Positions 1,155 through 23,236 of a stretch of 28,109 bases of DNA are shown in pieces. The notes beneath the pieces are model-generated. The model saw only the letters and a list, made by a program, of their open reading frames with translations. It was not told where the DNA came from and did no database searches. Positions within the stretch are counted from its first letter, which is position 1; every line of letters starts with the position of its first letter. The position numbers and the translations under genes were made by a program. Source of the stretch: Candidatus Krumholzibacteriia bacterium (GTDB taxonomy: Bacteria > Krumholzibacteriota > Krumholzibacteriia > WVZY01); the NCBI GenBank assembly GCA_036478295.1, contig JAZGDW010000171.1, positions 1-28,109 of the forward strand, in the 5' to 3' direction.

Positions 1155-2408
1155 CTATTCGTAGCGAAGGGCGTCGACGGGATTGAGGCGGGCGGCCCGT
1201 CGGGCAGGATAAATCCCGAATATGATACCAATGAGAGCGGAGAATACCACCGCGATAATCGTCCACCCGATCGAGAACTGGAACGGGAAATGGATACGAT
1301 TCGAGATCAGCAGCGCGGCGCCGACGCCGAACGCCGTACCGATCAGGCCCCCAATGCCTGTCAGGGTCGCCGATTCCATCAGGAACTGCTGTATGATGTC
1401 CTTCTTGTTGGCGCCCAGCGCCATGCGGATGCCGATCTCCCTCGTGCGCTCCGCGACCGAAATCAGCATGATGTTCATCACACCAATGCCGCCGACCAGC
1501 AAGCCGATCGAGGCAATGATAACGAGAATGAAACTGATCGCAAGCGTGACGCCACCGATGATTTCCAGAAAGGCGGTACTGGAAGTCACATGAAAATTGT
1601 TTTCTTCGCCGGGTCGTACGTGCCGTCGGACGCGCATCACGTGCGTTATCTGTTCCTGGGCCTCCTCGAGCGTATATCCTTCACTTACGTTGGCGGCGAT
1701 CGATGTGTCGTCATCATCCCTCTGAAAATCCTTGTGGTATGACGTGTACGGGATGAGCGCGAAATTGTCGGAAATCGACCCGATAAAATGCTCGCGGTTG
1801 GCGAACGTCCCTAACACACGATAGCGCTGACCGAGGATGTTGACGTACTTACCTATCGGGTTCCCGTGCGGGAACAGATCCTCGGCCGGTCCGTAGCCGA
1901 GCACCACGACCCTCTCGCGATGTAGCTCTTCGAGCCGGGTGTAGGACCTGCCATGCTCGATCGGTAGCGAGAATATCTCCGGAAACGTATAGCCCGATCC
2001 GTCGAGCTCGAGCGGCGCCGTGTGCTCACCCTTGTAGTAGATGACGGCCGGATCATCGTACGTAATGAAATAGCACACCTTGTCCAGCGCCGGACATTGC
2101 GCGTCCAGCGCCGTCGCGTCACCAGGCTCGAGCTTCTTTCGCCGCATGAGTTCCTCGTCGTTCCGACCCGACACGAAGAAATCAAAACGCGTAACGAAGA
2201 TGTAGGGACGGTTGGCCGATTCGAGATCCTTGTTGATCTTTGTGACCAAGCCGGACATGACCGTCACCATCGCAAGGATGGTGGTGATACCGATGGCAAC
2301 GCCCAGAATCAGTAGGCCCGAGCGCATACGGTGCGCGTGGATGATGGCCAGTGCCTGACCCAGGTTTTCCCGCCACAGGTTCTTGGCCGAAACGTGCTTG
2401 TTAGCCAT
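1155..2408 (-). CDS. MacB/FtsX-family ABC transporter permease (no fused ATPase)
   Basis: 417 aa. N-terminal RSGLLILGVAIG TM helix, large periplasmic domain, C-terminal VGGIGVMNIMLISVAERTREIGIRMALGA and PARRAARLNPVDALRYE signatures. Confidence 0.95.
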   Translation of the reverse strand: MANKHVSAKNLWRENLGQALAIIHAHRMRSGLLILGVAIGITTILAMVTVMSGLVTKINKDLESANRPYIFVTRFDFFVSGRNDEELMRRKKLEPGDATALDAQCPALDKVCYFITYDDPAVIYYKGEHTAPLELDGSGYTFPEIFSLPIEHGRSYTRLEELHRERVVVLGYGPAEDLFPHGNPIGKYVNILGQRYRVLGTFANREHFIGSISDNFALIPYTSYHKDFQRDDDDTSIAANVSEGYTLEEAQEQITHVMRVRRHVRPGEENNFHVTSSTAFLEIIGGVTLAISFILVIIASIGLLVGGIGVMNIMLISVAERTREIGIRMALGANKKDIIQQFLMESATLTGIGGLIGTAFGVGAALLISNRIHFPFQFSIGWTIIAVVFSALIGIIFGIYPARRAARLNPVDALRYE

Positions 2409-2440: not shown

Positions 2441-2519
2441 TCGCGGGTCCTGTCAGCGAACAGCCCGTCCGTGCTCGCAAGCTGCGCGCGGCCGGGCGCC
2501 CGTTCGCTGCCACCCGCGA
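2441..2519 (+). repeat. Long imperfect hairpin containing a REP-like palindrome (CGCAAGC apex)
   Basis: TCGCGGGT (2441-2448)/ACCCGCGA (2512-2519), CAGCGAAC (2454-2461)/GTTCGCTG (2502-2509), GCCCG/CGGGC and CCGTGC/GCGCGG pair around an apical cGCAAg. Confidence 0.65.
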
Positions 2520-2631
2520 TCGCCCCGGCACAACGTTTCAACCGGCGTCGTGCTTGACGAAGCGGCGACGGCCCATCAACAATTACCAGTGGCAAGTCCC
2601 ACCTCGTACCGGCGTTCTCCCTATCCCAGTT

Positions 2632-2755
2632 GGTGGCGTGGGGAGACAGGTGTTCTCAGGCGAGTTCCGCAGGCGCGCAATCGACTGGGTACGAGCACCT
2701 GGTTCGTGCGCCGAGGACTGTCTGAGCATGAGAACACCTGTCTCCCCGCGCCGCC
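2632..2755 (+). repeat. ~125-nt structured hairpin element, copy 1
   Basis: 19-bp perfect inverted repeat 2640-2658/2729-2747, extended by G-T pairs to 2632/2755. Core GTTCTCAGGCGAGTTCCGCAGGCGCGCAA-N21-GTTCGTGCGCCGAGGACTGTCTGAGC is shared with copy 2. Confidence 0.9.
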
Positions 2756-2873
2756 CCGGAGCGCTAGGCTTGCGGCGCGCGGGGCCGGAAACAGTTTGCC
2801 AGCGGCAGGTTCCACCTCGCAGCCGCCCCCGCGCTCTAGCGCTTGCGGAGCGTGGGCCGGAGACGATTTGTCA
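2752..2873. repeat. Degenerate ~72-bp-period direct repeats with REP-like palindromes
   Basis: 2752-2801 aligns with 2824-2873 (cgcccc..gcgctag-gcttgcgg.gcg.gggccgga.ac..tttg.ca). 2796-2821 also matches 2583-2608 (21/26, all mismatches transitions). Confidence 0.7.
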
Positions 2874-2893
2874 AGCACGACGCCCTTCCACGA

Positions 2894-4129
2894 CTAGCGC
2901 TCGTGGCGCAGGGCGTCGACCGGGTTCAGCATCGACGCGCGGACCGCCGGGTACGTCCCGAAAACCAGCCCCACCGCGATGGTAACTGTAAAGGCCAGCA
3001 CCACGATGACGCCGTCGATCGCATACGGGATCGGGGTTAGCACGGAAACGATGAGCGCGATCAGGAACCCGATCAGCATTCCAAAGACTCCGCCGAAAAA
3101 CGACAGGGTCGACGACTCCACCAGGAACTGCCATACGATGTCCCGACGGCGCGCTCCGAGCGCCTTGCGGATACCGATCTCGTTTGTCCGTTCCGTAACC
3201 GCGACCAGCATCGTGTTCATCAGCACGATTCCGCCAACTATCAAAGACATACTCACCAACACGTAGAGCGCCATCATGATCCCGCCGCTAATCTGTTTCC
3301 AGAGATTGACCAGCTGTTCGCTGGACGACAGGAAGAAATCGTCGTCCTGCGCTGGACGCAAGTGATGCCGCGTGCGCATTGCCAGGCGCGCCTCTTCCAT
3401 TGCCTCGGGCAGGTCGCCCACATCGGCGGTCTTGATGCGGATGTCGACCGACTGTTCGGCACCGAACACTTTCTGGTATGCGCCTATGGGCACGATTACG
3501 AACCGGTCCTGACTCTGCCCGAGTACGGAGCCCTTCTTTTCCGCCACACCGACAATCTGAAAGTGCCGGCGTCCCAGTTTGATCAACACGTCGAGGGGGT
3601 CTCTTGGTTCGACCAGGCCGGTATATACCTCCCACCCCACCACGGCCACTGAGGAGTTTGTCGCCACATCGATGCGGTTCAAGTGCCGGCCGGCGGAAAG
3701 GTCGACATTGTCCAGAAACGGGTAATACTCATCCTGTCCCTTGACTTGGATGTTGCGGAGCGTCTGGTCGCCCAAACTGACCGCAAGGTTGCCCGAAACG
3801 GCCGCACTGACGTACTGCGGAGTGTGAAGCTCGCCTCGAAGCACCTTCACGTCTATGCGCCTTATCGGGGGGTTGTGCCGGATTGCCTTCAGAAAACCGT
3901 CGAAGTCGGTGATGGCTTCCAGGTGGTTGAATCTCTGGACCTTGAAGACATTACTGCCTTCCTGGGCGACCTTCTCGCGGGCGTACCTGTCGATGCCTCT
4001 CAGCAGAGAAGCGACCGTGATGACGGACATGATGCCCACGATGTTACCGAGGAGGGTAAGAACCGTTCGCAGCTTGTTGCCGGCGAGCGCCGTGGCTGCG
4101 ATTCTTATGCCCTCGACAAGGAGCCGCAT
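2894..4129 (-). CDS. MacB/FtsX-family ABC transporter permease (no fused ATPase)
   Basis: 411 aa. NKLRTVLTLLG, VGGIVLMNTMLVAVTERTNEIGIRKALGA and YPAVRASMLNPVDALRHE motifs. Confidence 0.95.
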   Translation of the reverse strand: MRLLVEGIRIAATALAGNKLRTVLTLLGNIVGIMSVITVASLLRGIDRYAREKVAQEGSNVFKVQRFNHLEAITDFDGFLKAIRHNPPIRRIDVKVLRGELHTPQYVSAAVSGNLAVSLGDQTLRNIQVKGQDEYYPFLDNVDLSAGRHLNRIDVATNSSVAVVGWEVYTGLVEPRDPLDVLIKLGRRHFQIVGVAEKKGSVLGQSQDRFVIVPIGAYQKVFGAEQSVDIRIKTADVGDLPEAMEEARLAMRTRHHLRPAQDDDFFLSSSEQLVNLWKQISGGIMMALYVLVSMSLIVGGIVLMNTMLVAVTERTNEIGIRKALGARRRDIVWQFLVESSTLSFFGGVFGMLIGFLIALIVSVLTPIPYAIDGVIVVLAFTVTIAVGLVFGTYPAVRASMLNPVDALRHER

Positions 4130-7606: not shown

Positions 7607-8236
7607 CTAATGCAGCCTGAAAATGAACGGAATCATCACGTGCGCCTTGACCGGTGTCGTACGCTGTTTGGCCGGGCTGAAACGGCACCTCCTGGCCGCC
7701 GCTAGCGCGGATTTCACCATGGCGGGAGTGACGTCCGAGCTGATCAACTCGGCTGTAAGCACCTTTCCATCCTCGGCAACGAGAACTTTGATACGGACCG
7801 TCCCTTCGATACCCGCCTCCCGTGCCAGGTCGGGATACTCCGGAACCTCGAAGTGGGTCAGCCGCGGCGGCTCGTCGAACGCAAGAAATACGCCCCCTCC
7901 ACTTCCACCGGGAGGCGGAGGTGGGGGCAGGTCGTCGAAAGTGTCGAAGCTCGTCTCCGGCAGATCCTCGGATTCATCGGCTTCGTCGTCCGCGGCCTCC
8001 ACGGGAACCTGGGGCATGGCCACTTCTTTTGGCGGTGGAGGAATCTCGATATTGTCCGGGATGTCGACAACCTCGAACCTTTCCTCGTTCAGCCTGTACG
8101 GCTTGAAGGTGAAGGGAGGCGAGAGCACGAAGAGGAGAACATGGAAAATGACGGCCCCGTACAGCGCGTTCCGGACGTACTTCGAGTATTTCTGCTTGAA
8201 CTCTTTGTTCGCGCTTATCTGTATCGCGATGGCCAC
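7607..8236 (-). CDS. tonB: Energy transducer TonB
   Basis: N-terminal TM with conserved His (GAVIFHVLLF), Pro-rich linker (IEIPPPPKE, LPPPPPPGG), C-terminal YPDLAREAGIEGTV...FSPAKQ TonB_C domain. GGAGG RBS. Confidence 0.93.
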   Translation of the reverse strand: MAIAIQISANKEFKQKYSKYVRNALYGAVIFHVLLFVLSPPFTFKPYRLNEERFEVVDIPDNIEIPPPPKEVAMPQVPVEAADDEADESEDLPETSFDTFDDLPPPPPPGGSGGGVFLAFDEPPRLTHFEVPEYPDLAREAGIEGTVRIKVLVAEDGKVLTAELISSDVTPAMVKSALAAARRCRFSPAKQRTTPVKAHVMIPFIFRLH

Positions 8237-8240
8237 GTGC

Positions 8241-8654
8241 CTAGCCTCCGGATTTTTCCGGGTCCGCCGTAAAGGATACCCTCACCGCGTTCGCGCTCTT
8301 GAGCTGCTCCATCACTTCGGACACGATTCCGTTCGGTGTCCTCTGATCGGCGTTGAAGGCGACGATGAGCAGCGGGTTTTCGCGCAGCGCGCTGGTCACG
8401 ATGTCCGCAATCTGTGGCGTCTGGACGATCTTGTCCTGGATCGCGATGTTACCTATTGCATCGATCCACACCCGCATGGTCCGTTCACGCTTTTGCTTGG
8501 CCGCGGTCTCCGCCCGCGGCAGCGTGATGGTCAGACCGTCCTCCATCTTGAAAATAGTGGTCACCATGAAGAAAATCAACAGCAGGAACGCGATATCCGC
8601 CATGGAGGACGTCGGCACGTTGTTTTCGATTTTTGACTCTCGTTTGAATCTCAT
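8241..8654 (-). CDS. exbD: ExbD/TolR biopolymer transport protein (second copy)
   Basis: SSMADIAFLLLIFFMVTT TM with the essential Asp; C-terminal ADQRTPNGIVSEVMEQLK. Confidence 0.92.
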   Translation of the reverse strand: MRFKRESKIENNVPTSSMADIAFLLLIFFMVTTIFKMEDGLTITLPRAETAAKQKRERTMRVWIDAIGNIAIQDKIVQTPQIADIVTSALRENPLLIVAFNADQRTPNGIVSEVMEQLKSANAVRVSFTADPEKSGG

Positions 8655-8664
8655 GGCTGGGATC

Positions 8665-9069
8665 CTAGATTTTCATGGTTTTCAACGATATTCGCCGCGC
8701 GTTTGCCAGGCGCAGCTCGTCGAGGATATCGACCATGATACCGTACTCGCTGTCGGGATGGGTCTCGATGACGACGATGAGCTTGGCGTTCTCGGCGAGC
8801 CTGCGCTCGATGCGCGGGCGCACACCGGCGAGGCTGACCTGCTCGTCATCCACCGTGATGGCACCGTTCGCGTGCGCCTGAACGACGAGTATGTTCTTGC
8901 GCTTCACCTTGACGTTTGTCGACTGTTTTCCGGGAAGCACCAGGGGAATCCCTTCCTCCAGCGCAAAAATCGTCGTCACGAGAAAGAAGATCAGCAGCAG
9001 AAACGCAATATCCGACATGGATGCTGCCGGTATATCCCCTGACGCTCTTTTTCGCGCGTGGTGCTTCAT
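8665..9069 (-). CDS. exbD: ExbD/TolR biopolymer transport protein (first copy)
   Basis: ASMSDIAFLLLIFFLVTT TM with the essential Asp; YGIMVDILDELR. Confidence 0.92.
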   Translation of the reverse strand: MKHHARKRASGDIPAASMSDIAFLLLIFFLVTTIFALEEGIPLVLPGKQSTNVKVKRKNILVVQAHANGAITVDDEQVSLAGVRPRIERRLAENAKLIVVIETHPDSEYGIMVDILDELRLANARRISLKTMKI

Positions 9070-9072
9070 GTG

Positions 9073-9942
9073 CTATTCGCTCCGTGCCTCGATCTCGACC
9101 AGCTCGTTGACCAGCTCCGCGGCGGCCTCCTCCATCTCGGTGATGAAACGGTCGATCTGCGAGACAAAATAGTTGTGCATGATATTCATCGGAATGGCGA
9201 CGATCAGTCCCGTCGCCGTCGTAATGAGCGCCTCCTGAATACCCTTGGCCACCAGTTTGGCGCTGACCTGCTCCGCCTGCGCGATCGCTGCGAAAGCGCT
9301 GATCATACCGGACACCGTGCCGAGGAACCCGAGGAGCGGCGCCACGTTACCCACCGTGGCGATCGCGACCAGTCCTCTCTCCAGAAAGGACATCTCGATG
9401 GTACCGGCGGTCTCGATGGCTTTCTCCACCGCTTCAGGTCCGTGGCCGGCCCGCATGAGACCGGAGTGAAGAATGGCGGCGATGGGTCCCCGCGTTTTCT
9501 CACACTCGGAGAGAGCGCCCTGCACGCCAGCTTGGCGCAGAGAGCGGATCGTGCGCCCCATGAGACTGCGTACGTTGGTCCGCGCCCTCGACAGCGTCCA
9601 CAGGCGTTCGATGATGAACACCAGGCCGATGATGGAACAGAGCAGGAGCGGATACATAAACAACCCACCCTTTACATAATTCTGGCCAATACCGCTCTGT
9701 TTCACCCGATAGACAAAACCGCTCTGTTCTTTCTTGATGATGGCCTGGATCTCCGTAGCGATCGCCACGGAGTCGTTCGGAGCCATTGCGAGCGAATCGG
9801 TAACGAGAATGCCCGTCGCTGCTACCGTAGTGTCCGCTCCCTCGGCACCCTCTTGAGCCGGCGCGGTTGTGCCTAAGGTCACAAGCAGCAGTACAAACGC
9901 AACCAGCGAGAGCGTCCTCTTCACAAATGAACTCGTGTACAT
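9073..9942 (-). CDS. exbB: MotA/TolQ/ExbB proton channel protein with N-terminal signal-like extension
   Basis: GGLFMYPLLLCSII, APLLGFLGTVSGMI, GIQEALITTATGLIVAIP motifs. ATG 9942 follows AAGGAG at 9952-9957 (ORF track start 9963). Confidence 0.92.
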   Translation of the reverse strand: MYTSSFVKRTLSLVAFVLLLVTLGTTAPAQEGAEGADTTVAATGILVTDSLAMAPNDSVAIATEIQAIIKKEQSGFVYRVKQSGIGQNYVKGGLFMYPLLLCSIIGLVFIIERLWTLSRARTNVRSLMGRTIRSLRQAGVQGALSECEKTRGPIAAILHSGLMRAGHGPEAVEKAIETAGTIEMSFLERGLVAIATVGNVAPLLGFLGTVSGMISAFAAIAQAEQVSAKLVAKGIQEALITTATGLIVAIPMNIMHNYFVSQIDRFITEMEEAAAELVNELVEIEARSE

Positions 9943-10043
9943 CGCAAAGAACTCCTTTGCCATAATAGGTGGATGTTTAGGGAATGATTGTCGCCGAAAT
10001 GTTTCGCTAACGATAGACCCAACATATGGTTAAGTATCCGTAG

Positions 10044-10072
10044 ACTATAAGTGACGCCGCACGAAGTGTCAA
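10044..10072 (-). promoter_or_regulatory. Sigma70-type promoter for exbB-exbD-exbD-tonB
   Basis: TTGACA (10072-10067) - 17 nt - TATAGT (10049-10044) on the minus strand in an AT-rich intergenic region. Confidence 0.8.
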
Positions 10073-10139
10073 TCAAAAATGGAAATCGGTGGGGTCCTGC
10101 CAGCGTGGTGGTGAGGTCAGCTAACCTGATGAAACTTCG

Positions 10140-11666
10140 TTACTTATTCGACAGCGACGAGCTACTTTCCAATTTATACCTCCCGTATCCTTCCCTGTCA
10201 ACGAAAATAAACCGCTGGCCGATATCCTGCTCGAGTGACACGTCCCTTTTGAGAAGGGGTTTGCCCTGACCGTTGTACACCCACAACTCGTACGGGTAGG
10301 CCACGTCGCCGCCTTCACCCACGTTCCCCAGACGTCGCGGGTCGATCACGATGTTGCGGCTGGGTCTCGCGTAATCGATGCGGCCGCCGGTGTTGCTGAA
10401 GTTGACCACGTGAAACTTATCTCCGACCTTTTCTAGCGCGTCGGACACCGATTCGCGGTTGAGCGGCATGACGTCCATGATGATCTCATCCGGGGGGCCG
10501 AGTTTCAGGTAGATCAGTCCCCGGTCCGTAAAGATGCCGAGCTGGTAGTCCGTGAATCTGGCGTTGACGTACTCCAGGCGTTCCTGAAACTCTTCGTACG
10601 CCTCGTTGACACCGGTCAGCGGGTCGGGGTCGGCCTCTTTCCACATCGCCTGCAGGGTCCTTTCTTGTTCGCCGACGCTCTTCGACGCAAAGTCTTCAAA
10701 ATCGTCCGCTTCCAGGAGAAAACGCGCTTCCGCGATGAGATTACGCCTGGACGTCTCCCACGTTTTCATGTCCCACGCGACGTTGAAGCGGCCCGCAACA
10801 ACGCGCACCAGCAGCTGATCCTCCAGACCAGCGTTGAGGTAGAGCGCATACCTACCCGCGGGAAAACGGTTGAGGTCCTCGTTGATGACCACGCGGTAGG
10901 TAATGATCCCCGTCCCCGGGTCGGTGGCCGCTTGGGAAACCCGGGCGGACGACTGGGTGACGACATCACCTTGCTCGTTCAGGATGTGCGTTTCGAGTTT
11001 CAGATTTCCCCGTTGCGCGATTTCCGCCGGTACGTACGCCTCGAAATAAACCTGCAAAGAATCGCGGTGCAGCCCGTATAACCGGGACGGGTTGGGATGG
11101 TGGATCACGCTGCCGCCAGTGAGCTTCTCGGTCCTCCAAACGAACTTCGCGTCACTCAGCGCCATCGTCTCCCCCGTGAAGTCCGGCACCTCGATAGGAA
11201 CGCGATCCACGAGCGATTTCCTCAGCTGGCCCTTTACCATACCGAGAACAGTCATCTTGGGGGCATTCAGGTCCTCCACGGCACACGAGATGTCGTAGCT
11301 GCCCGGCGCGAACTTGAATTTCTTGATCAGCGTCTGGAACCGTAGCGGGTCCCGCGCGTGGTTTTCGCTGTCCGCGTACATTTTGAACTCGGCGCTTTCC
11401 TTCAGCACCGTTTGCCGGCTCGCGTCCCGCACGCGAAACGAGATGCGCGCCCTTGCCTGCAGTCGGCCGTCGACCTGTTTGAAGCGCACCTGAGCATTCG
11501 GAATGCGGAGATAGACTTCCTCGAGGGTCGAACCGTCCTCCATGCGGAATCCTGCCGTGTCTAGATAAAAGTCGAAGTCGCCCTTACCCACTCCCTCACC
11601 AGCACTCGCCCGGGACGTCACCACAGCTAGTAGGGCAAGCAATATGACAGCACAGGTACGGTTCAT
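10140..11666 (-). CDS. GWxTD-domain-containing exported protein
   Basis: 508 aa. Signal peptide (ASA-G), beta-rich N-terminal region, then MWKEADPDPLTGVNEAYEEFQERLEYVNARF...GIFTDRGLIYLKLGPPDEI...PYELWVY...FIFVDREGYGRYKL. Confidence 0.88.
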   Translation of the reverse strand: MNRTCAVILLALLAVVTSRASAGEGVGKGDFDFYLDTAGFRMEDGSTLEEVYLRIPNAQVRFKQVDGRLQARARISFRVRDASRQTVLKESAEFKMYADSENHARDPLRFQTLIKKFKFAPGSYDISCAVEDLNAPKMTVLGMVKGQLRKSLVDRVPIEVPDFTGETMALSDAKFVWRTEKLTGGSVIHHPNPSRLYGLHRDSLQVYFEAYVPAEIAQRGNLKLETHILNEQGDVVTQSSARVSQAATDPGTGIITYRVVINEDLNRFPAGRYALYLNAGLEDQLLVRVVAGRFNVAWDMKTWETSRRNLIAEARFLLEADDFEDFASKSVGEQERTLQAMWKEADPDPLTGVNEAYEEFQERLEYVNARFTDYQLGIFTDRGLIYLKLGPPDEIIMDVMPLNRESVSDALEKVGDKFHVVNFSNTGGRIDYARPSRNIVIDPRRLGNVGEGGDVAYPYELWVYNGQGKPLLKRDVSLEQDIGQRFIFVDREGYGRYKLESSSSLSNK

Positions 11667-11684
11667 TGATTCTCCCCAAAATTA

Positions 11685-11711
11685 CAACGGGCACCCGCCG
11701 GGTGCCCATTG
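11685..11711 (-). terminator. Stem-loop between the PorV-like and GWxTD genes (weak terminator or mRNA stabiliser)
   Basis: GGGCACCC-gcc-GGGTGCCC (11689-11707), followed on the minus strand by GTTGTAATTTT. Confidence 0.5.
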
Positions 11712-11742
11712 CTCGAAACATCTGTCGATACCCGGCCCGGGC

Positions 11743-12690
11743 TTAATAGCTGAACCCGAGGCTAAACCTGTGGGAATTCCCCAGGAAACCAAGGTCTTCC
11801 CACGCGTAGTCGAAGTTCAGGTCGGAGGTCTGTGTGGTATCGAACCGGAGCCCGAAACCGGCGGCCGCGCCGGCGGCGTCGTAATCGACGTTGTAGCCAC
11901 CGCGGAGATAGAAGAACTGGTTAAAGGAGTACTCACCACCCACGTTGACCCTTTCCGTGTTGTCCGACGGGTGGGCGAATTCCCCGACCGTGCTCAAACT
12001 GTGCACACCTCGCTGGTATGCAGCCACCGAGACGCCGATTTTGAACAGCGTGGGTATTTTCGACTCACGGCTGTCGTAATCCACCTTGCCGCCCAGACTC
12101 TGGATCATCATGCCCAGCCTCATACCCCTGAACCCGATTCGGTAGATCAAGCCGAAATCGACCGCGTAGGTATTGACACTCTTCTCGGCAAGACCCGAGT
12201 GAATGAAATGCACTGTGCCACCGGCCGAGAACTTGTCCGTGAAGAACTGGGCATAGGACAGCCCAAAAGACATGTCGCCCGCGTCGAACTCGCGACCGGT
12301 CCCGTTGGGCAGAAAGATCGTGCGCTCCGTCTGTGGATCGATCGACAACGCGCGCGCAGAAACACCCCAGGTGCCCGGCGCGAACGGTACGGTAAATATG
12401 GCTGCCGCGAAGTCCAGGGACACGTCGGCGGGCCAGAACACATGTTCCAGCGCCACGGCCGTGTTGGTCACCTCGACGATGCCCGCCGGGTTCCAGTAGA
12501 CGGCCGATGCATCGTTGGCGAGTGCGGTGTACGCACCCCCCATGCCCGTTGCACGCGCGGACGGGCCGATCTTCAGAAACTGAAGCGCAAACGTGCCCAC
12601 CTTCGCGAACGGTTCCGTTGCGAACGACTGAGCTGGCAGCAAAGACGCCACGACAATCGAAACAATGACTAATCCGAACTTGGAACGCAC
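11743..12690 (-). CDS. PorV/PorQ-family (FadL-like) outer-membrane beta-barrel protein
   Basis: Signal peptide, then FLKIGPSARATGMGGAYTALANDASAVYWNPAG, typical of PorV/PorQ-like barrels; ends HRFSLGFSY (beta-signal). GTG 12690 is 7 nt from GAGGAGG (ORF track start 12696). Confidence 0.88.
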   Translation of the reverse strand: MRSKFGLVIVSIVVASLLPAQSFATEPFAKVGTFALQFLKIGPSARATGMGGAYTALANDASAVYWNPAGIVEVTNTAVALEHVFWPADVSLDFAAAIFTVPFAPGTWGVSARALSIDPQTERTIFLPNGTGREFDAGDMSFGLSYAQFFTDKFSAGGTVHFIHSGLAEKSVNTYAVDFGLIYRIGFRGMRLGMMIQSLGGKVDYDSRESKIPTLFKIGVSVAAYQRGVHSLSTVGEFAHPSDNTERVNVGGEYSFNQFFYLRGGYNVDYDAAGAAAGFGLRFDTTQTSDLNFDYAWEDLGFLGNSHRFSLGFSY

Positions 12691-12782
12691 AGTCAAACCT
12701 CCTCAGACTCCGTTGCCCGCGTAAGACGCACGTGGGGATTCACTCGTACTTTCGATTCTCATTGTCCACAACCTGTTAACAT

Positions 12783-15700
12783 TTAGAATTCAAACCCAAA
12801 ACCGATCCGCCAGATCCGGTGCTGCTCGAACACGGTCGGGTCGGTGACCGGCACAAAATCATCACGTCCATCGTCGTCTATATCTTGCAGGTACGCACCT
12901 CCGAAGCGGCCGGTCTCGGTAAGGTATGAGCCTCCATCCATCTGAGCCACTGCCATCTGGGGGAAGACCCCCGGTGCATCCTGGCCGGGCAGTATAATAT
13001 CCTCATCCAGCAGGTTCCGCCCCTCGAAGAAGAGCGTCAGATCACGCCCGTAGATGTTGAACTTCTTGCGTCCCTGAATGCTTACGCGGTGCGACGACTC
13101 GAAACGGTTGGCGTTTTCTTGCAGCGGATCCTGCAGGCGCGCGAACCGGTCTATCGGGGTCCACGGAAGCCCGCTGCCAAACTGGTAGATCGCGGTCGCG
13201 CCCCAGTTGTTGCGCTCCCGCATGCGCAGCGTCACGTTGAACGTATGCCGTTGATCCCAGTCCAGGGGACGCTCATCCGTCGGCAGGTGAGTCAGGCCTT
13301 GCGCCGAGCGGCCAAAGTCCGAGTCGCTGGACACGCCATCGGCGAACGAATACGTGTAGTAGGCCTCGAACCCGAAGCGGCGTGACAACCGTTTCTCCAG
13401 CGAGAGCTCCAATCCTCTGGAACTCGCGTAGGTCTTATTGATAAACCGCGTGCTCTGGATACCCGTCGAGTCGTCGGTGACGAGGGTCGACGATATCAAT
13501 CCGTAGATATCCTTGCTGAAGACCACGAAGTTGCCCGCCACATCCTCGCTGAACTGGTGCGAAATACCCGCCTGGTACGAAATTGTCAGCTCAGGTCCCA
13601 GGTCCGGGTTGCCCAGAGTCCCGATCGATCCGATGGCGTCCTGGGTCGCGAAGAGAAAGGTGCGGCTCGGCCACTGGGTGAACCGGCCGTAATGGAAAAA
13701 GAATTTGTCGCGGTCGGTGATCGGAAACGCGATTCCGAGTCTCGGCGACACGTTTTGCTTGAACGTTTGGACCTCTTTGGGGATTTCCACGTTATTGATC
13801 AGGCTCTCGTCGTTGTTTCCCGTCGAGAAGAACTCCCACCGGACCCCCGCATTCACGACCATCCCTTCGTATTCCCACTTGTCCTGCGCGTAGACGGCAC
13901 CCTCGGGGTTGAAGTTGTGGAACAAGTTGACGTTCCGGCCCTGCTGCGAGGTGCCCTCTGACGGGTTCTCCCGGGTTTGCGCCGGGAACACGCGTGTCTC
14001 CTGATTGAGGTCATTGTAGATGAACTGCACCCCGGCCTTCATCCGGTGACCTTTTACCCGCTCGGACGTCAGGTCTCCCTTGATCAGGTACTGCACCGTT
14101 TGCCGGTCCTCGAAGAACGGCGAGTCATACGCGGTGACGAAATATGGAAAGTCGGGATCCGTGTACCATGTCGCCTGACTGACACCTCCCTGCAAGAAGG
14201 TACCCGACGGCAGCTGCGTCGGCAGGCCCGCCGAAGTGAACTGCCCGGGCGCTTTGCCGTTAACGGTCTGGGTCCGGTTGAATGCCAGGCGGCTAAAGTT
14301 AACGGAATAAAGGATATCATCCGCAATGTTATGATTGAAAGACAGCTTGAGCTGCAGGTTTTGATTCTCGATTTCCGGTGTTCGCGATGCCGAATTGAAG
14401 AAGACGAACGAGGAATCGGACGCATCTCCGGCCGGCGTCGCCCGGAAATCGCTGAACGGGAACTGGAATCCCTCGAAGAGAATCCACGACCGGCGTCCCC
14501 CCGTTGGCTGACCGCCGGCGTCCACGAGCGCCTCGTCCCACAGGATCGTCTGGCCGTTGACATCGATCGCCCGGAAGTTGAAGAACTTGCGTTCGGTCGC
14601 AATCCCGTCCGGGTCGCGTACGATCTGCACGACCTCGACCGTTCTCGGGTTGGGTTGCTTGGCTGGATCGTTCACGGCGTCGAGCCACGGTCCCTCGAAC
14701 TGAACCGAGATACCACCGAAGGAGAAAACGTCCTGACCCGTACCGGTCGGGATCAGGCGCTGGAAGTAATAGACCTTCTGTACGGAACCCTGGAGGTTCC
14801 AGTTGTGCCGGTACAGTTCGCGCCTGGAACGCTGGACGATCGCCTCGCCGGTGACTTTGAACGGCGCATGGTTCCACGAGAGCTTCGTCTGCACGTTCAG
14901 CGAGTGACTCATCCGATCACGAGCCTTTAGCCAATTCGTGAGCTTGTGCTCCGTCCTCTGCTCTATGGAAACGTTCTCCCCGTCCAGAAACGTGCCCTCT
15001 GCGGATACGTAGTAGCGCACGCTCTTCCATGGGGTCGGCCCGCCGAATCCCAGGCTTACGCGGTCGAAGTTGGTGAACGTCTTATCCTGGCGCCCGAAGT
15101 CGTCGGTCATGTAGCGAAACTCGCCACCAAAAACGTTGCCGCCTTCCTTGGTGCTAATATTAATCACACCTGATTGGGCGTTGCCGTACTCGGCGTCCAT
15201 ACCGCCGGCAATAAAGTCGGACCCGGAGACTCCCAGGAGCCCGACGTCCATCGCGGCTCCACCGAGCGGGTCATCGACCGGAACGCCGTCGATCTGCATC
15301 TGGATCTCTCCCGACCGGCCGCCGCGGGCGTGAAGCTCGTCACCGGTTTTCACGATTCCCGTCTTGAGCGCGATGGCCTCGATGGCGCTATCGACCGGCA
15401 TATCCAACATTTGCTCGTCGGTCACGGATGAGCGTACATCGGACGACGTAACGTCGATCATCTTGCGTTCGCCGGTGACCTCGATGACCTGGGTCTCCGC
15501 GACAATCGTTTCTACCAGGGTAAAGGTTACCTCAGTCGCCCGGTTAGCGTTGACGGCGATCCTGGCCAACTCGACCGTCTTGTAACCCATCATCATCGCC
15601 TTAACGGTGTAGGTGCCCACCGGCACGCCCTCAACCGCGAACTTGCCGTCGTCGAGACTCATCGCACCCTTGTTGGTGCCGACGATGATCACGTTGGCGA

Positions 15701-15854
15701 AACCGAGAGGCTTCTTGGTCTTCTTATCGATTACCCTGCCGGTAATCCGGCCGGTACCCTGGGCTTGCAGGAGAGTGGGGCTTGAAACACACAGAAGCGC
15801 GAATGCGAGCAAGGCACCGACGAAAGGCATTCTCACCCTTGCGTTTCCAAACAT
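12783..15854 (-). CDS. TonB-dependent receptor with N-terminal carboxypeptidase-regulatory-like domain
   Basis: 1023 aa. Signal peptide, GRITGRVIDKKTKKPLGFANV domain, plug (RGGRSGE...IDGVPV...GGMDAEYGNAQSGVINISTKEG), SPRLGIAFPITDRDKFFFHYGRF, GNPDLGPE, terminal GFGFEF. Confidence 0.95.
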   Translation of the reverse strand: MFGNARVRMPFVGALLAFALLCVSSPTLLQAQGTGRITGRVIDKKTKKPLGFANVIIVGTNKGAMSLDDGKFAVEGVPVGTYTVKAMMMGYKTVELARIAVNANRATEVTFTLVETIVAETQVIEVTGERKMIDVTSSDVRSSVTDEQMLDMPVDSAIEAIALKTGIVKTGDELHARGGRSGEIQMQIDGVPVDDPLGGAAMDVGLLGVSGSDFIAGGMDAEYGNAQSGVINISTKEGGNVFGGEFRYMTDDFGRQDKTFTNFDRVSLGFGGPTPWKSVRYYVSAEGTFLDGENVSIEQRTEHKLTNWLKARDRMSHSLNVQTKLSWNHAPFKVTGEAIVQRSRRELYRHNWNLQGSVQKVYYFQRLIPTGTGQDVFSFGGISVQFEGPWLDAVNDPAKQPNPRTVEVVQIVRDPDGIATERKFFNFRAIDVNGQTILWDEALVDAGGQPTGGRRSWILFEGFQFPFSDFRATPAGDASDSSFVFFNSASRTPEIENQNLQLKLSFNHNIADDILYSVNFSRLAFNRTQTVNGKAPGQFTSAGLPTQLPSGTFLQGGVSQATWYTDPDFPYFVTAYDSPFFEDRQTVQYLIKGDLTSERVKGHRMKAGVQFIYNDLNQETRVFPAQTRENPSEGTSQQGRNVNLFHNFNPEGAVYAQDKWEYEGMVVNAGVRWEFFSTGNNDESLINNVEIPKEVQTFKQNVSPRLGIAFPITDRDKFFFHYGRFTQWPSRTFLFATQDAIGSIGTLGNPDLGPELTISYQAGISHQFSEDVAGNFVVFSKDIYGLISSTLVTDDSTGIQSTRFINKTYASSRGLELSLEKRLSRRFGFEAYYTYSFADGVSSDSDFGRSAQGLTHLPTDERPLDWDQRHTFNVTLRMRERNNWGATAIYQFGSGLPWTPIDRFARLQDPLQENANRFESSHRVSIQGRKKFNIYGRDLTLFFEGRNLLDEDIILPGQDAPGVFPQMAVAQMDGGSYLTETGRFGGAYLQDIDDDGRDDFVPVTDPTVFEQHRIWRIGFGFEF

Positions 15855-19278: not shown

Positions 19279-20256
19279 CTATCCCGCCCGCGGCTCGCCC
19301 CTCGACATCCTCATCCGCGGGTCGACCCACAGATAGGAAATATCCGCGAGGAGGTTGCCCAGGATTACCATCACCGCCGCGACAAAGTTGGCGGCCAGAA
19401 CCACGGGATAATCGCGCGTAAAGATGGCGTCCACCATCAACGCACCCATTCCCGGCCAGCCGAAGATCTTTTCTATCACAACGGCCCCCGCCAGGAGAAA
19501 AGGGACACTCAAACCAATGACGGTGAACAGCTGCGGCGCCGCGTTCTTGAGTGCGTGCCGCCACAGTATCCGTCCTTCCGAAAGACCCTTGGCCCGAGCC
19601 GTGCGGATGTATTCCTCGTGGAGCTGGTCGAGAAGACTGCCCCGCGCGTAGCGTGCCAGCGCGGCCGCGCTGCCCACTGCAAGAACCGTCACCGGCAGGA
19701 TCATGTGACGGAGGCGATCGGCAAACATCTGCGTGGTCGGCGTATGAACGGAAAACATGCCTGCAGCGGGAAGCCACTGCAGTTTCAACGCAAAAACGGA
19801 GACGAGCAAAAACGCCAGGTAGAACGACGGCAGCGAATACAACACGAGAAATACGACCGAGGCGGAGCGATCCAGCGAGCTTTCGCGCCGCATGGCGGAG
19901 AGCATTCCCAGTCCCATACCCAGGACAATCTGCAGCAGGAGCGCAATGCCGGTGAGCTGCAGCGTGCGCGGAATGGTTTCCTTCAGTATCTGCGCCACCG
20001 GCCGGCGCTGGTGGATGCTGATACCGAAATCTCCGCGGATGAAGCTCTGCAGGGTCTTCGCGTACTGCACGGGAAGCGGCCGATCAAGCCCCAGCTGGCG
20101 CCGCACGGTCTCCATCGCTGCGGGGTCGATGTCGGGGCTGTAGTAGCGGCCCAGCGGATCGCCGGGGGCAAGACGAATGATGAAGAACGTGGCGGTCAGG
20201 GTGATGAATACAAGAATGGCCGCGTGGACAGTGCGACGAAGGAGAAATCGGATCAT
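19279..20256 (-). CDS. oppB: Peptide/nickel ABC transporter permease (OppB/DppB type)
   Basis: LAPGDP, LGLDRPLPVQY, GDFGIS, EYIRTARAKGL, IEKIFGWPGMG, RDYPVV, VDPRMR. Confidence 0.92.
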   Translation of the reverse strand: MIRFLLRRTVHAAILVFITLTATFFIIRLAPGDPLGRYYSPDIDPAAMETVRRQLGLDRPLPVQYAKTLQSFIRGDFGISIHQRRPVAQILKETIPRTLQLTGIALLLQIVLGMGLGMLSAMRRESSLDRSASVVFLVLYSLPSFYLAFLLVSVFALKLQWLPAAGMFSVHTPTTQMFADRLRHMILPVTVLAVGSAAALARYARGSLLDQLHEEYIRTARAKGLSEGRILWRHALKNAAPQLFTVIGLSVPFLLAGAVVIEKIFGWPGMGALMVDAIFTRDYPVVLAANFVAAVMVILGNLLADISYLWVDPRMRMSRGEPRAG

Positions 20257-20300: not shown

Positions 20301-20425
20301 GAGGCAAGGCAGGAACAGCGGTTCTCCGGCTCAGACAGTCCTCGGCGCACGAACTTCGTGCCCACGAATTGCTGGGTTGCGCGCCTGCGGAACTCGCCTG
20401 AGAACCGCTGTTCCTGCCTTGCCTC
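20301..20425 (-). repeat. ~125-nt structured hairpin element, copy 2 (inverted relative to copy 1)
   Basis: 26-bp perfect inverted repeat 20301-20326/20400-20425. On the minus strand the core is GTTCTCAGGCGAGTTCCGCAGGCGCGCAA-N22-GTTCGTGCGCCGAGGACTGTCTGAGC, with both blocks identical to copy 1. Confidence 0.9.
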
Positions 20426-20432
20426 CGCCAGA

Positions 20433-21881
20433 CTATGCCTCGGGACAGTTCAACGGCGCGGCGAGGATCGGTTTTCGATTCGCCGTCGCTTCGTCCAACC
20501 GCCGGACCGGGGTATTGTACGGCGCCCCCTTCAACAGGTCCGGATCCTCCACCGCCTCGCGGGCGATCTGTTTCATGACGGTGACGAAGTGATCGAGTGT
20601 TTCCTTGCTTTCCGTTTCAGTCGGTTCGATCATGATCGCCTCCCGGACCACCATGGGAAAGTAGATCGTCGGCGCGTGGTACCCGAAATCGAGAAGACGC
20701 TTGGCGATGTCCAGGGTTCGCACACCGTGTGCCCGGAAGGACTCACCGGAGGCGACGAACTCGTGCATGCAACGCTTGCCATACGGAATTGGAAAGAGTT
20801 CCGCGAGCTCGCTCGCCAGGTAGTTGGCGTTCAGGTTCGCGGTCGCCGCGACGCGGCGCAATCCCTCCGCGCCGTGGCGGACTATGTAACAGAGCGCGCG
20901 CAGGTAAATCCCGAAATTGCCGTAGAAGGAGTGGATGGCTCCGACGCTGTCCGGGTTGTCATCGTCGAACCGAAAACGTTTGCCCACTTTACGCACCCTG
21001 GGGACCGGCAGGAATCGGGCGAGAGATTCTTTTACGCCAATCGGGCCCGACCCCGGCCCACCGCCACCGTGAGGAGTGGAAAAGGTCTTATGCAGGTTGA
21101 CATGCATCATATCGAAACCGAAGTCCCCCGGTCGTGCCCACCCGAGCAAGGCGTTCAGGTTGGCACCGTCCATGTAGCATAACGCACCGCGGGCATGGGC
21201 CAGCTCGAGGATCTCACCGATGCGGCTCTCGAAAATCCCCAGAGTGTTCGGCACGGTGAGCATGAGGACGGCCGTGTCTTTGTCGAGTGAACTATTCAGC
21301 ACGTCCATGTCGACTTCACCGTCTTTCGCTGATGGCACCGCTTGATCGTGGTATCCAACCATTTGTACGCTGGCTGGATTGGTGCCGTGCGCTGAGTCGG
21401 CCACCAGTACTTTGCTGCGAGATTCACCGCGGTCCTGGAAATACTTCTTCGCTATCATCATTCCCACCAATTCACCGTGCGCCCCCGCCGCTGTGTTCAG
21501 CGAGAAAGCGTCCATGCCGACGATACCGCAGAGTTGTTTCTCCAGCGTGTAGATGACTTCCAGCGCACCCTGCACATCGGTTCCCATCTGTTCCGGGTGC
21601 AGGCCTGCGAATCCCTTCATCGACGCGACGTCTTCGTTCACTTTGGGGTTGTACTTCATCGTACAGCTCCCCAGCGGATACAGATTCTTGTCGATGTGGT
21701 GGTTGCGTACGGAGAGTTCCGTAAAATGGCGTACGACGCCCGGCTCGCTGACTTCGGGCAGTCGTGGGGGCGCCTTGCGCAGGTATTCGCGGGCAACGTC
21801 TACCGGGCCCGCGGCCGGCTCGTCGGCAAATCGGAACCCCCTCCGGCCTTTGCGACTCATTTCGAACAGTGTCTTCGACAT
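20433..21881 (-). CDS. gcvPB: Glycine cleavage system P protein subunit 2
   Basis: YPLGSCTMKYNP, SAHGTNPAS, PLP-lysine motif NLHKTFSTPHGGGGPG, MIEPTETESKE. ATG 21881 preferred over GTG 21896. Confidence 0.97.
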   Translation of the reverse strand: MSKTLFEMSRKGRRGFRFADEPAAGPVDVAREYLRKAPPRLPEVSEPGVVRHFTELSVRNHHIDKNLYPLGSCTMKYNPKVNEDVASMKGFAGLHPEQMGTDVQGALEVIYTLEKQLCGIVGMDAFSLNTAAGAHGELVGMMIAKKYFQDRGESRSKVLVADSAHGTNPASVQMVGYHDQAVPSAKDGEVDMDVLNSSLDKDTAVLMLTVPNTLGIFESRIGEILELAHARGALCYMDGANLNALLGWARPGDFGFDMMHVNLHKTFSTPHGGGGPGSGPIGVKESLARFLPVPRVRKVGKRFRFDDDNPDSVGAIHSFYGNFGIYLRALCYIVRHGAEGLRRVAATANLNANYLASELAELFPIPYGKRCMHEFVASGESFRAHGVRTLDIAKRLLDFGYHAPTIYFPMVVREAIMIEPTETESKETLDHFVTVMKQIAREAVEDPDLLKGAPYNTPVRRLDEATANRKPILAAPLNCPEA

Positions 21882-21892
21882 CTCGCAAGCCC

Positions 21893-23236
21893 TCACGTTT
21901 TCCTCAGCAGGTCGCAGAGGCGGTTAAAGTCATCTTCGGTTCGCTTCTCCGTCACCGCGATGAGCAGGTCGTTTCTCGAGTCGTCGCCGAAATACTTTGC
22001 CAGTGGGATACCGGCCAGGATTCCCGAAGCGCGGGCGTCGTCCACGATCAACTGCGCGTCCACCGGGCAGCGGACGACGAATTCGCGAAAGAACGGCCCG
22101 GGGTAACGGAGTGAATACCCCGCACAGGATGTAATCATCGACGCCAACCGGTGCGCTTTTGCGTGACAGATTCCGCCCAGCTGATGGAATCCCGTCTCTC
22201 CCAGCAGCGCCATGTAAATCGTCGAGCGCAACGCCACCAGTCCCTGGTTGGTACAGATGTTCGACGTCGCCTTTCCGCGTCGGATGTGCTGCTCGCGTGT
22301 CTGTAGGGTCAACGTATAGGCCCGCTTGCCGTCGATGTCGCGCGTCTCGCTTACCAATCGTCCGGGCAAGCTCCGGATGTATTTTTGATCGCAGGCCATG
22401 AAACCGAGCAGCGGGCCTCCGAAATTCGGGTGGTTGCCGAGACCCTGCCCCTCTCCGACGGCGATGTCCGCGCCGTACTCGCCGGGGGGCTGGAACAGCG
22501 CCAGCGACAGAGGATCCACCGCCACCACGAGCAGCGCGCCTGCTTCGCGGATTGCGTCACGGTAACGCCAAGGTGACTCCAGCACACCGAAATAGTTCGG
22601 GGTCTGCACGACAACGCCGGCCACGTCGTCACCTAGCGACTTGCGGAGGACCGCGTCGTCGATGCCGCCGTCGGCCGTCGCCGGCAACGGCGTCAGTTCC
22701 AGTTCTTGCTGGGTGACGTACGTGGTCAGCACCTGCTGGTAACGGGGGTTGATGTTCTCCGAAAAGAGAAGTCTCGATCGGCCGGTGGCCTTGGCGGCCA
22801 TGAGGGCTGATTCGGCGAGTGCCGTCGCCGCGTCGTACATCGAGGCGTTCGCGACCGGCAGGCCCGTCAACCGGGAGATCATGGTTTGGTATTCAAAAAT
22901 AACCTGTAGAGTGCCCTGACTGACTTCCGCCTGGTAGGGGGTGTAAGCGGTATAGAACTCCGAGCGCGCGCTCAGATGATTGACCGCCGACGGAACAACA
23001 TGATCGTAAATCCCGCCACCGAGAAAACTCACCATGTCGCCCGCAGCGCTATTGCGGCCTGCCAACGCTTCAAAGTGCCGGATGGTCTCGAACTCGCTAA
23101 AGCCGGGTCCGATCGGCAGGGTCTCGTTCATGCGGTACTTGCTGGGGATCCCGTCGAACAATTCTTCTTCCGATGTGAGACCCATCGCCTGCAGCATGCT
23201 TCGCCGGTCTTCGTCCGTATGGTAGAGGTACGGCAT
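21893..23236 (-). CDS. gcvPA: Glycine cleavage system P protein subunit 1
   Basis: EFYTAYTPYQAEVSQGTLQ, NASMYD, LQTREQHIRRGKATSNICTNQ. Confidence 0.97.
   Translation of the reverse strand: MPYLYHTDEDRRSMLQAMGLTSEEELFDGIPSKYRMNETLPIGPGFSEFETIRHFEALAGRNSAAGDMVSFLGGGIYDHVVPSAVNHLSARSEFYTAYTPYQAEVSQGTLQVIFEYQTMISRLTGLPVANASMYDAATALAESALMAAKATGRSRLLFSENINPRYQQVLTTYVTQQELELTPLPATADGGIDDAVLRKSLGDDVAGVVVQTPNYFGVLESPWRYRDAIREAGALLVVAVDPLSLALFQPPGEYGADIAVGEGQGLGNHPNFGGPLLGFMACDQKYIRSLPGRLVSETRDIDGKRAYTLTLQTREQHIRRGKATSNICTNQGLVALRSTIYMALLGETGFHQLGGICHAKAHRLASMITSCAGYSLRYPGPFFREFVVRCPVDAQLIVDDARASGILAGIPLAKYFGDDSRNDLLIAVTEKRTEDDFNRLCDLLRKT

Follow-up and report, generated by a model that had tools for sequence, protein, structure and literature searches.

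Two hairpins in one contig of a Candidatus Krumholzibacteriia bacterium (the window, meaning the whole 28,109-nt stretch that was analyzed) raise the question of what preserves the core of a repeat when its ends vary from copy to copy and still pair. From sequence comparison we propose, at a probability of roughly 0.58, that the hairpins belong to a dispersed non-coding element that likely folds as single-stranded DNA (ssDNA), with a core module that is probably recognized by a trans-acting, single-strand-specific enzyme that copies it intergenically. The features of the window on which the argument draws are these:

1155-2408, minus strand: gene for a MacB-like ABC permease, flanking copy 1
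2443-2517, plus strand: 75-nt near-invariant core from a second family of hairpin repeats, located in the copy 1 spacer (36 BLAST rows in the source genome)
2544-2575, plus strand: left half of a 32-nt inverted-repeat pair (84%) around copy 1
2632-2755, plus strand: copy 1, entire hairpin, short form (nhmmer, folding)
2632-2658, plus strand: copy 1 left outer arm, 27 nt, pairing with 2729-2755 including two G·T
2660-2672, plus strand: copy 1 module strand A (GCGAGTTCCGCAG)
2673-2711, plus strand: copy 1 inner stem and variable apex
2712-2727, plus strand: copy 1 module strand B (CGAGGACTGTYTGAGC)
2729-2755, plus strand: copy 1 right outer arm
2853-2884, minus strand: right half of the 32-nt inverted-repeat pair around copy 1
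2894-4129, minus strand: gene for a MacB-like ABC permease, flanking copy 1
19279-20256, minus strand: gene for an Opp/Dpp B-type (OppB-like) ABC permease, flanking copy 2
20301-20425, minus strand: copy 2, entire hairpin, short form, beginning 7 nt past the gcvPB stop codon
20301-20326, minus strand: copy 2 right outer arm
20329-20344, minus strand: copy 2 module strand B
20385-20397, minus strand: copy 2 module strand A
20400-20425, minus strand: copy 2 left outer arm, paired with 20301-20326 over 26 perfect bp
20433-21896, minus strand: gcvPB, flanking copy 2 (above the curated cut-off)

Both copies are intergenic, mutually inverted and separated by 17.6 kb. They share an exact 29-nt block (2652-2680 and 20405-20377) and an exact 26-nt block (2702-2727 and 20354-20329) spaced by 21 and 22 nt, precisely the arrangement given in the original prediction. 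The outer stem of copy 1 comprises 19 perfect bp, or 27 bp counting two G·T pairs, and that of copy 2 comprises 26 perfect bp. Folding z-scores of the two hairpins ranged from -5.5 to -11.7 across eight folds, in each of which 0 of 200 shuffles folded equally well. All flanking genes lie on the minus strand; relative to them, the module strand (defined below) is antisense in copy 1 and sense in copy 2, the same assignment that had been made for the flanking operons.

That the hairpins form a structured family of more than two copies was borne out in the source genome (G000). An nhmmer search returned 27 rows, 22 of them at E<0.05, and the window copies are two of about 22. These 22 copies comprise 10 short forms of the window type, 10 long forms with an additional ~48-nt segment within strand A, and two right halves. 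When 15 copies were aligned (13 from G000 and two from a related genome, G001), 94.5% of cells were paired and 22 of 39 pairs were altered on both sides; 0 of 500 shuffles reached any of the measures, and slid controls paired at 30-49%. Pairwise, 620 of 872 arm differences were mirrored on the partner arm. Mean identity over the 15 copies was 56% in the left arm and 97% in the core. Thus the outer arms, first described as differing between copies while each pairs with itself, do self-pair perfectly over 19 and 26 bp, but are homologous sequences that have diverged. An origin of the arms as target-derived duplications was ruled out, because the arms are homologous among G000 copies and near-identical within G210.

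The hairpins are part of a larger mosaic of 97 connected repeat regions. The second family in the copy 1 spacer, which also has mirrored copy-specific arms, belongs to this mosaic, many of whose regions lie at contig ends. Four of the five G000 contigs with two hairpin copies carry them in opposite orientation; replichore bias was not evident from these contig pairs or along the G211 chromosome, where strands alternate. In long forms such as L426 (G000:C279:19603-19790) the ~48-nt segment makes a side stem, and it contains -35/-10-like hexamers merely 12-13 nt apart. A unit related to this segment forms tandem repeats enclosed by IS1380-type ends at L275. A variant module with a shorter strand B bulge occurs in the same kind of rod at L319, L286 and G000:C125:23243-23345. 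Arrays of short TGACAG-type palindromic units were seen in 12 regions of G000 (contigs C69, C80, C124, C203, C314 and C316), one of them adjoining an IS1380-ended copy. On contig C184 of G000 a tRNA-end-like 26-mer and a 23-mer each occur five times, regularly placed, possibly as an integration array.

The conserved letters of the core reduce to strand A (GCGAGTTCCGCAG) and strand B (CGAGGACTGTYTGAGC), and the two identical blocks of the window hold both strands of one asymmetric G·A-rich internal-loop module. In its inferred fold, one end would carry tandem G·A and the opposite end GCA/GA, and a segment of CTGTY type, with an almost invariant CTG, would bulge from strand B. Strand B was present in 48 of 208 genomes of the class, many with chance-level single matches, and 16 had at least three matches (controls, 0-2). 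A scan of species genomes recovered at least 127 stretches with the module pattern. Among the matches listed, 80 records with both strands span, by record title, 12 groups: Pseudomonadota, delta proteobacteria, Nitrospirota, Actinomycetota, Patescibacteria, Omnitrophota, Spirochaetota, Gastranaerophilales, Bacteroidota, Planctomycetota, Gemmatimonadota and Ca. Latescibacterota. By its genes and its strand order, the window would suit the last-named group. Five unrelated genomes contained 57, 36, 9, 18 and 3 copies of strand B against 0 in controls. Counts for the family as a whole are drawn from related genomes and are not independent of one another. Conservation figures for the module are inflated upward, because the matches were retrieved with the same patterns.

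The arrangement of the two strands is as flexible as their sequence is constant. Among the matches listed, strand A lies downstream of strand B in 77 and upstream in 46 of 136 distinct strand-B matches, giving both circular permutations. Since both orders exist, only the folded strand can present the module in constant form. Modules are stacked as AAA...BBB in L064 and AA...BB in L063, nested in opposite orientation in L138, and set within GC-rich as well as very AT-rich stems. At module pair A8:B5, for which the search patterns permitted unpaired combinations, 231 cases comprised 200 C:G, 25 G:C, 5 T:G and 1 C:A, and C:C and G:G never occurred; the swap was seen in a same-order genome, Gallionella, Nitrospirales and a provirus. 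A plasmid collection gave partial matches only. A literature search by motif strings and by concept, which covered titles and abstract openings with supplements and subscription journals outside its scope, found no description of the module. Thus, the module is nearly invariant across 12 bacterial groups and is apparently undescribed.

The original prediction took variable ends with conserved pairing as a sign of selection. In bacteria, template switching perfects imperfect inverted repeats (PMC5941160), and it is reported to homogenize arms and invert spacers (PMC8604942). Mirrored arms, and perhaps inverted cores too, can therefore be mutational in origin, and because template switching mirrors arms, arm covariation by itself is weaker evidence of selection than that prediction assumed. 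The same process should erase an asymmetric loop. The real evidence for selection is that the module persists in different phyla and in either strand order, and that a swap occurs within it. Selection on the fold accordingly stands by virtue of the module and its A8:B5 swap, whereas the arms are explicable by template switching.

Hairpin copies are gained and lost between relatives, and empty sites, which the original prediction had proposed to look for, were found in related genomes. Among 18 G001 loci compared with G000, both flanks were recovered for nine. A whole or partial element was present in G001 only at L244, L249, L251 and L254; L253 and L258 have a different hairpin from G000 at a shared site; and L248 shares its site and subfamily with a copy on G000 contig C30 in opposite orientation. 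The copy 2 site of G001 (the gcvPB-oppB spacer, L269) holds a remnant, half an element of another subfamily. The copy 1 spacer measures 486 nt in the window versus ~140 nt in G001, which lacks a 341-nt segment with copy 1 inside the 32-nt inverted repeats. Among 28 relatives, 26 have no element in the gcvPB-oppB spacer, the others being G001 with its remnant and G015 with a variant module recognized by eye. In G021, strand B lies ~110 nt upstream of the oppB homologue on the other strand. In a ~98% identical strain, represented by a single contig, the copy 2 site shows the module piece inverted and is longer by ~97 nt; no close strain came up when metagenomes were scanned with the OppB protein.

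Turnover of this kind might reflect passive cargo, spread by IS-ended miniature elements (MITEs) together with recombination between copies, with template switching mirroring the arms and the module having no recognition role. Such cargo exists within the family. Some members are wrapped in terminal repeats that match a full-length IS1380-family element in G019 (472-aa; NF033539, 230 bits), and a second matching full-length element is present in G075; IS elements with cognate ends lie at L278 (in G019) and L501. One or both IS1380-type ends accompany 3 of 19 strand-B sites in G000 (on C30, C253 and C316), 7 of 12 in G001 and 10 of 18 in G011, versus a chance rate of 0.3% per window. At L251 in G001 the element is bounded by a CTAA...CTAA 4-bp duplication, compared with a single CTAG at the empty site in G000. 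DDE transposition is thus real for the IS1380-ended subset. Template switching, known to act in bacteria (PMC5941160), would supply the mirrored arms, and the opposite orientations at the site shared by L248 and C30 also fit. As a general account, however, passive cargo is unlikely. IS1380-type ends occur at 3 of 24 sites in another family, are missing from 10 of 10 sites in G021 and 5 of 5 in G003, and in other phyla are present at 2 and absent at 134 of 136 (L104 and L111, titled Ca. Latescibacterota, are left out of this set). No such ends were found around window copies 1 and 2. Moreover, template switching should erase an asymmetric loop, yet this one scarcely varies from phylum to phylum, whichever strand comes first.

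The earlier statement that the hairpins are not MITEs therefore holds for the window copies, around which no IS1380-type ends were found, but not for members wrapped in IS1380-type repeats, one of them with a 4-bp target duplication. The resemblance to IS1380-family MITEs is confined to a lineage-limited subset with such terminal repeats, YTAR flanks and one duplication versus an empty site; such ends are missing from both window copies and from almost every copy in other phyla. The 32-nt inverted repeat around copy 1 (2544-2575/2853-2884) was rejected as an IS end, no family of it being found in 36 genomes. The IS1380 transposase of G000 itself is of another subgroup, in an element with different ends; this CTAG-flanked element (L494, G000:C266:132-2003) adjoins the apparent end of another transposase gene. 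In the order, the ends of the IS1380 elements L278:52-1566 (G019:C82), L501, L504, L505 and L508 also bound many short, varied, non-coding MITEs.

If an enzyme copies the hairpins, its gene might be expected beside them, as the suggestion of a REP/RAYT- or HUH-like substrate implied. No linked RAYT/HUH Y1 gene was found. Y1_Tnp is absent from G000; it occurs in 27 of 208 class genomes, in 1 of the 16 with at least three strand-B matches, where the gene is broken, and in 2 of 5 other module-rich genomes. The module strand was present at 0 of 32 Y1 loci. True modules were found at 0 of 17 GIY-YIG or DUF559 loci, one apparent match being a chance variant, and the sole GIY-YIG match in G000, a 112-aa gene, is not flanked by the module. 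RAYT/Y1, GIY-YIG and DUF559 proteins were accordingly set aside as partners. ORFs near ~190 loci were clustered, and 75 of the 141 small ORFs adjoining copies were scanned against Pfam; this revealed no recurring mobile enzyme and no neighbor protein common to several lineages, in genomes that are mostly incomplete assemblies, which often lose transposases. Neighboring genes are ordinary or small toxin-antitoxin and defense-type cargo.

Comparison with known repeats, like the original prediction, assigned the element to no named family. Rfam gave no match at gathering thresholds in the window and none on the module, either in 19 loci searched at E<=5 or in 20 loci searched at E<=1. Like REP, BIME and REPIN elements, which are served by RAYT (TnpA-REP, a Y1 HUH enzyme), these are small, intergenic, multi-copy non-coding hairpins with compensatory changes in free stems, and they form mosaic clusters; the REP group is read as ssDNA substrates, as is proposed here. 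REPs have a GT[AG]G guide at the hairpin foot (PMC6006769, PMC3733652), and a REPIN ends in conserved, inverted REPs and is linked to a RAYT (PMC3116915). For CGTC repeats, PMC3733652 reports no dedicated transposase. In our alignment, a GTAG/GTGG (or CGTC) tag 0-2 nt 5' of the foot is not conserved; a GTGG at 2633 falls inside the paired arm of copy 1, and copy 2 has no GTGG at its 5' foot. Whereas a REPIN has two inverted REPs as its ends, here an internal asymmetric two-strand module lies between variable ends (56% versus 97% for the core), inversion of strand A does not give strand B, and the module is permuted and common across phyla. No RAYT/Y1 gene flanked by the repeat was found in these incomplete assemblies. 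The element thus resembles REPINs as a mobile DNA hairpin but does not qualify as a REP or REPIN.

Two other systems are instructive. NTS/SRM repeats, targets of the Ssn (GIY-YIG) nucleases, are hairpins read as ssDNA in which two stem halves suffice without the loop (PMC11893778), comparable to a two-strand module. Ssn targets match the SRM motif (PMC11893778); in contrast, the SRM consensus has 0 matches in the spacers of both window copies, and no small GIY-YIG gene flanked by the repeat was found. The third point of comparison is the integron. Integron attC sites are structure-read ssDNA hairpins with free stems and strand-specific bulges, and they are resembled by the rod pairs that flank toxin-antitoxin and other small cargo genes in Gallionella and Nitrospirales. 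Unlike attC sites, the copies are dispersed rather than arrayed, it is the sequence of the bulge and not its shape alone that is invariant, and no integrase was seen next to the copies.

Invariance across phyla and the lack of a linked gene would both be accounted for if the module served a universal host protein of replication or repair, such as primase priming on ssDNA, so that the hairpin spread through host enzymes and needed no dedicated partner gene. E. coli primase initiates at CTG, the trinucleotide that is almost invariant in the strand B bulge. Mini-hairpins also occur at primase sites of single-stranded phage origins (PMC13037366). We consider this explanation improbable nonetheless. 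A universal site should not be so patchy, with any match in just 48 of 208 class genomes and many of these at chance level. Viral contigs, in which priming signals would be expected, are nearly devoid of the module (0, 3 and 0 matches in three scans), and primase specificity varies among phyla.

Whether the selected fold is of DNA or RNA was left undecided in the original prediction; the evidence favors ssDNA. Among 82 apical hairpins of up to 24 nt, 58 have a GNA triloop and none a GNRA or UNCG tetraloop, and two longer apical hairpins scored GNRA. GNA mini-hairpins are extraordinarily stable as DNA and their RNA counterparts much less so: d(GCGAAGC) melts at 76.5 C, and the RNA counterpart reported for a related eight-base hairpin at 39 C (PMC13037366). 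On the module strand, G·T exceeded A·C stem mismatches in four sets (9:2, 57:16, 34:10 and 27:9; sum 127:37), counts that leave out stems scoring under 7 (7 of 64, 4 of 45 and 28 of 79) and, in other phyla, L104 and L111; the bias was not significant in G000 alone (p=0.065). Orientation to genes was balanced, with 22 sense and 27 antisense among 49 co-directional contexts of 125 examined, as judged by a crude composition-based gene caller and again without L104 and L111. Collectively, triloops, wobble bias and the lack of a sense bias point to a fold of ssDNA, not RNA. The apices of the window copies are longer and have no GNA loop, so that for them a DNA reading would rest on family-level evidence. 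Strand-biased deamination could conceivably yield the wobble bias, yet, with orientation to genes free, such a process would need to act selectively on the module strand.

An RNA element under host-level selection, whether mRNA stabilizer, processing site or protein-binding stem, is thus quite unlikely, although several features suit one. Every context seen is intergenic; copy 2 lies on the sense strand 7 nt past a stop codon and would be transcribed; G·U wobbles and tandem G·A pairs suit RNA as well; and the RNA folds are strong. Set against these are the 22:27 orientation count, triloops of DNA type with no RNA tetraloops, the rapid gain and loss at a site, the lack of an Rfam match and, at copy 2, no promoter or terminator-like site.

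We therefore return to the single-strand-specific enzyme as the preferred reading and outline how it might operate. The element would be a non-autonomous ssDNA hairpin replicator that folds when DNA becomes single-stranded, at a fork or during repair or uptake. Only the module strand would fold well, since G·A pairs and GNA loops turn into T·C and TNC on the other strand. A putative enzyme would nick at or near the module, as RAYT does on REPs or Ssn on NTS, although in the genomes tested it would be neither of these. Stems would be free in sequence and held mirrored by template switching together with selection on the fold, and copies that come to lie between IS1380 ends would gain a second, ordinary transposition route as MITEs. 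More tentatively, and at less than even odds, the 29-nt two-strand, permutable and stackable ssDNA module may be the recognition and cutting site of an undescribed replicator, served by a putative family of site-specific single-strand enzymes or, in the extreme case, by DNA catalysis. A module that is itself a catalytic DNA core, self-cleaving or self-joining and spread with host repair alone, is very improbable: an invariant sequence between free stems, found in both permutations and with no partner gene, would parallel the small self-cleaving ribozymes, with their invariant cores between free stems and circular permutations, but we know of no natural catalytic DNA, and the several looser G·A modules in the same rods suit structural or binding motifs.

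A REP-type repeat is usually limited to one lineage and bound to a single transposase. Here one short module hardly changes, whether in Patescibacteria, Actinomycetota or Proteobacteria and irrespective of stems, strand order or GC content, and it offers an entry to the question of how repeats without a RAYT spread. The module is a defined bait, consisting of two short oligonucleotides, and its cultured carriers include Adlercreutzia and Thauera; such a bait could bring to light a new ssDNA enzyme with site specificity, show the module to be a host-protein site or expose catalytic DNA. As a two-strand ssDNA target that can be permuted, the module would have a further use as a tool. Even if the hairpins are no more than MITE cargo, they are a repeat that is widespread and unannotated and that flags where genes have been gained and lost.

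Further observations concern the surroundings of module rods in other lineages and of the hairpins in the window. In Gallionellaceae, Sulfuricella and Nitrospirales, pairs of module rods flank small cargo (L385, L387-L390, L396, L129/L130 and L159/L160), including a PIN-type toxin, an Rpn/PD-(D/E)XK protein, an IS4-like transposase and a McrBC-like pair, the last two labeled by eye. GTAG-type REP-like hairpins directly adjoin rods in Gallionellaceae (L132, L150, L095 and L102); the one RAYT-like gene examined (L384) has no flank in common with these REP-like hairpins or rods. Within the window, positions 7607-15854 and 1-1266 carry an operon encoding a large protein without an NCBIfam match, a PorV/PorQ-family protein and GWxTD-domain proteins, together with ExbB/ExbD/TonB-like genes.
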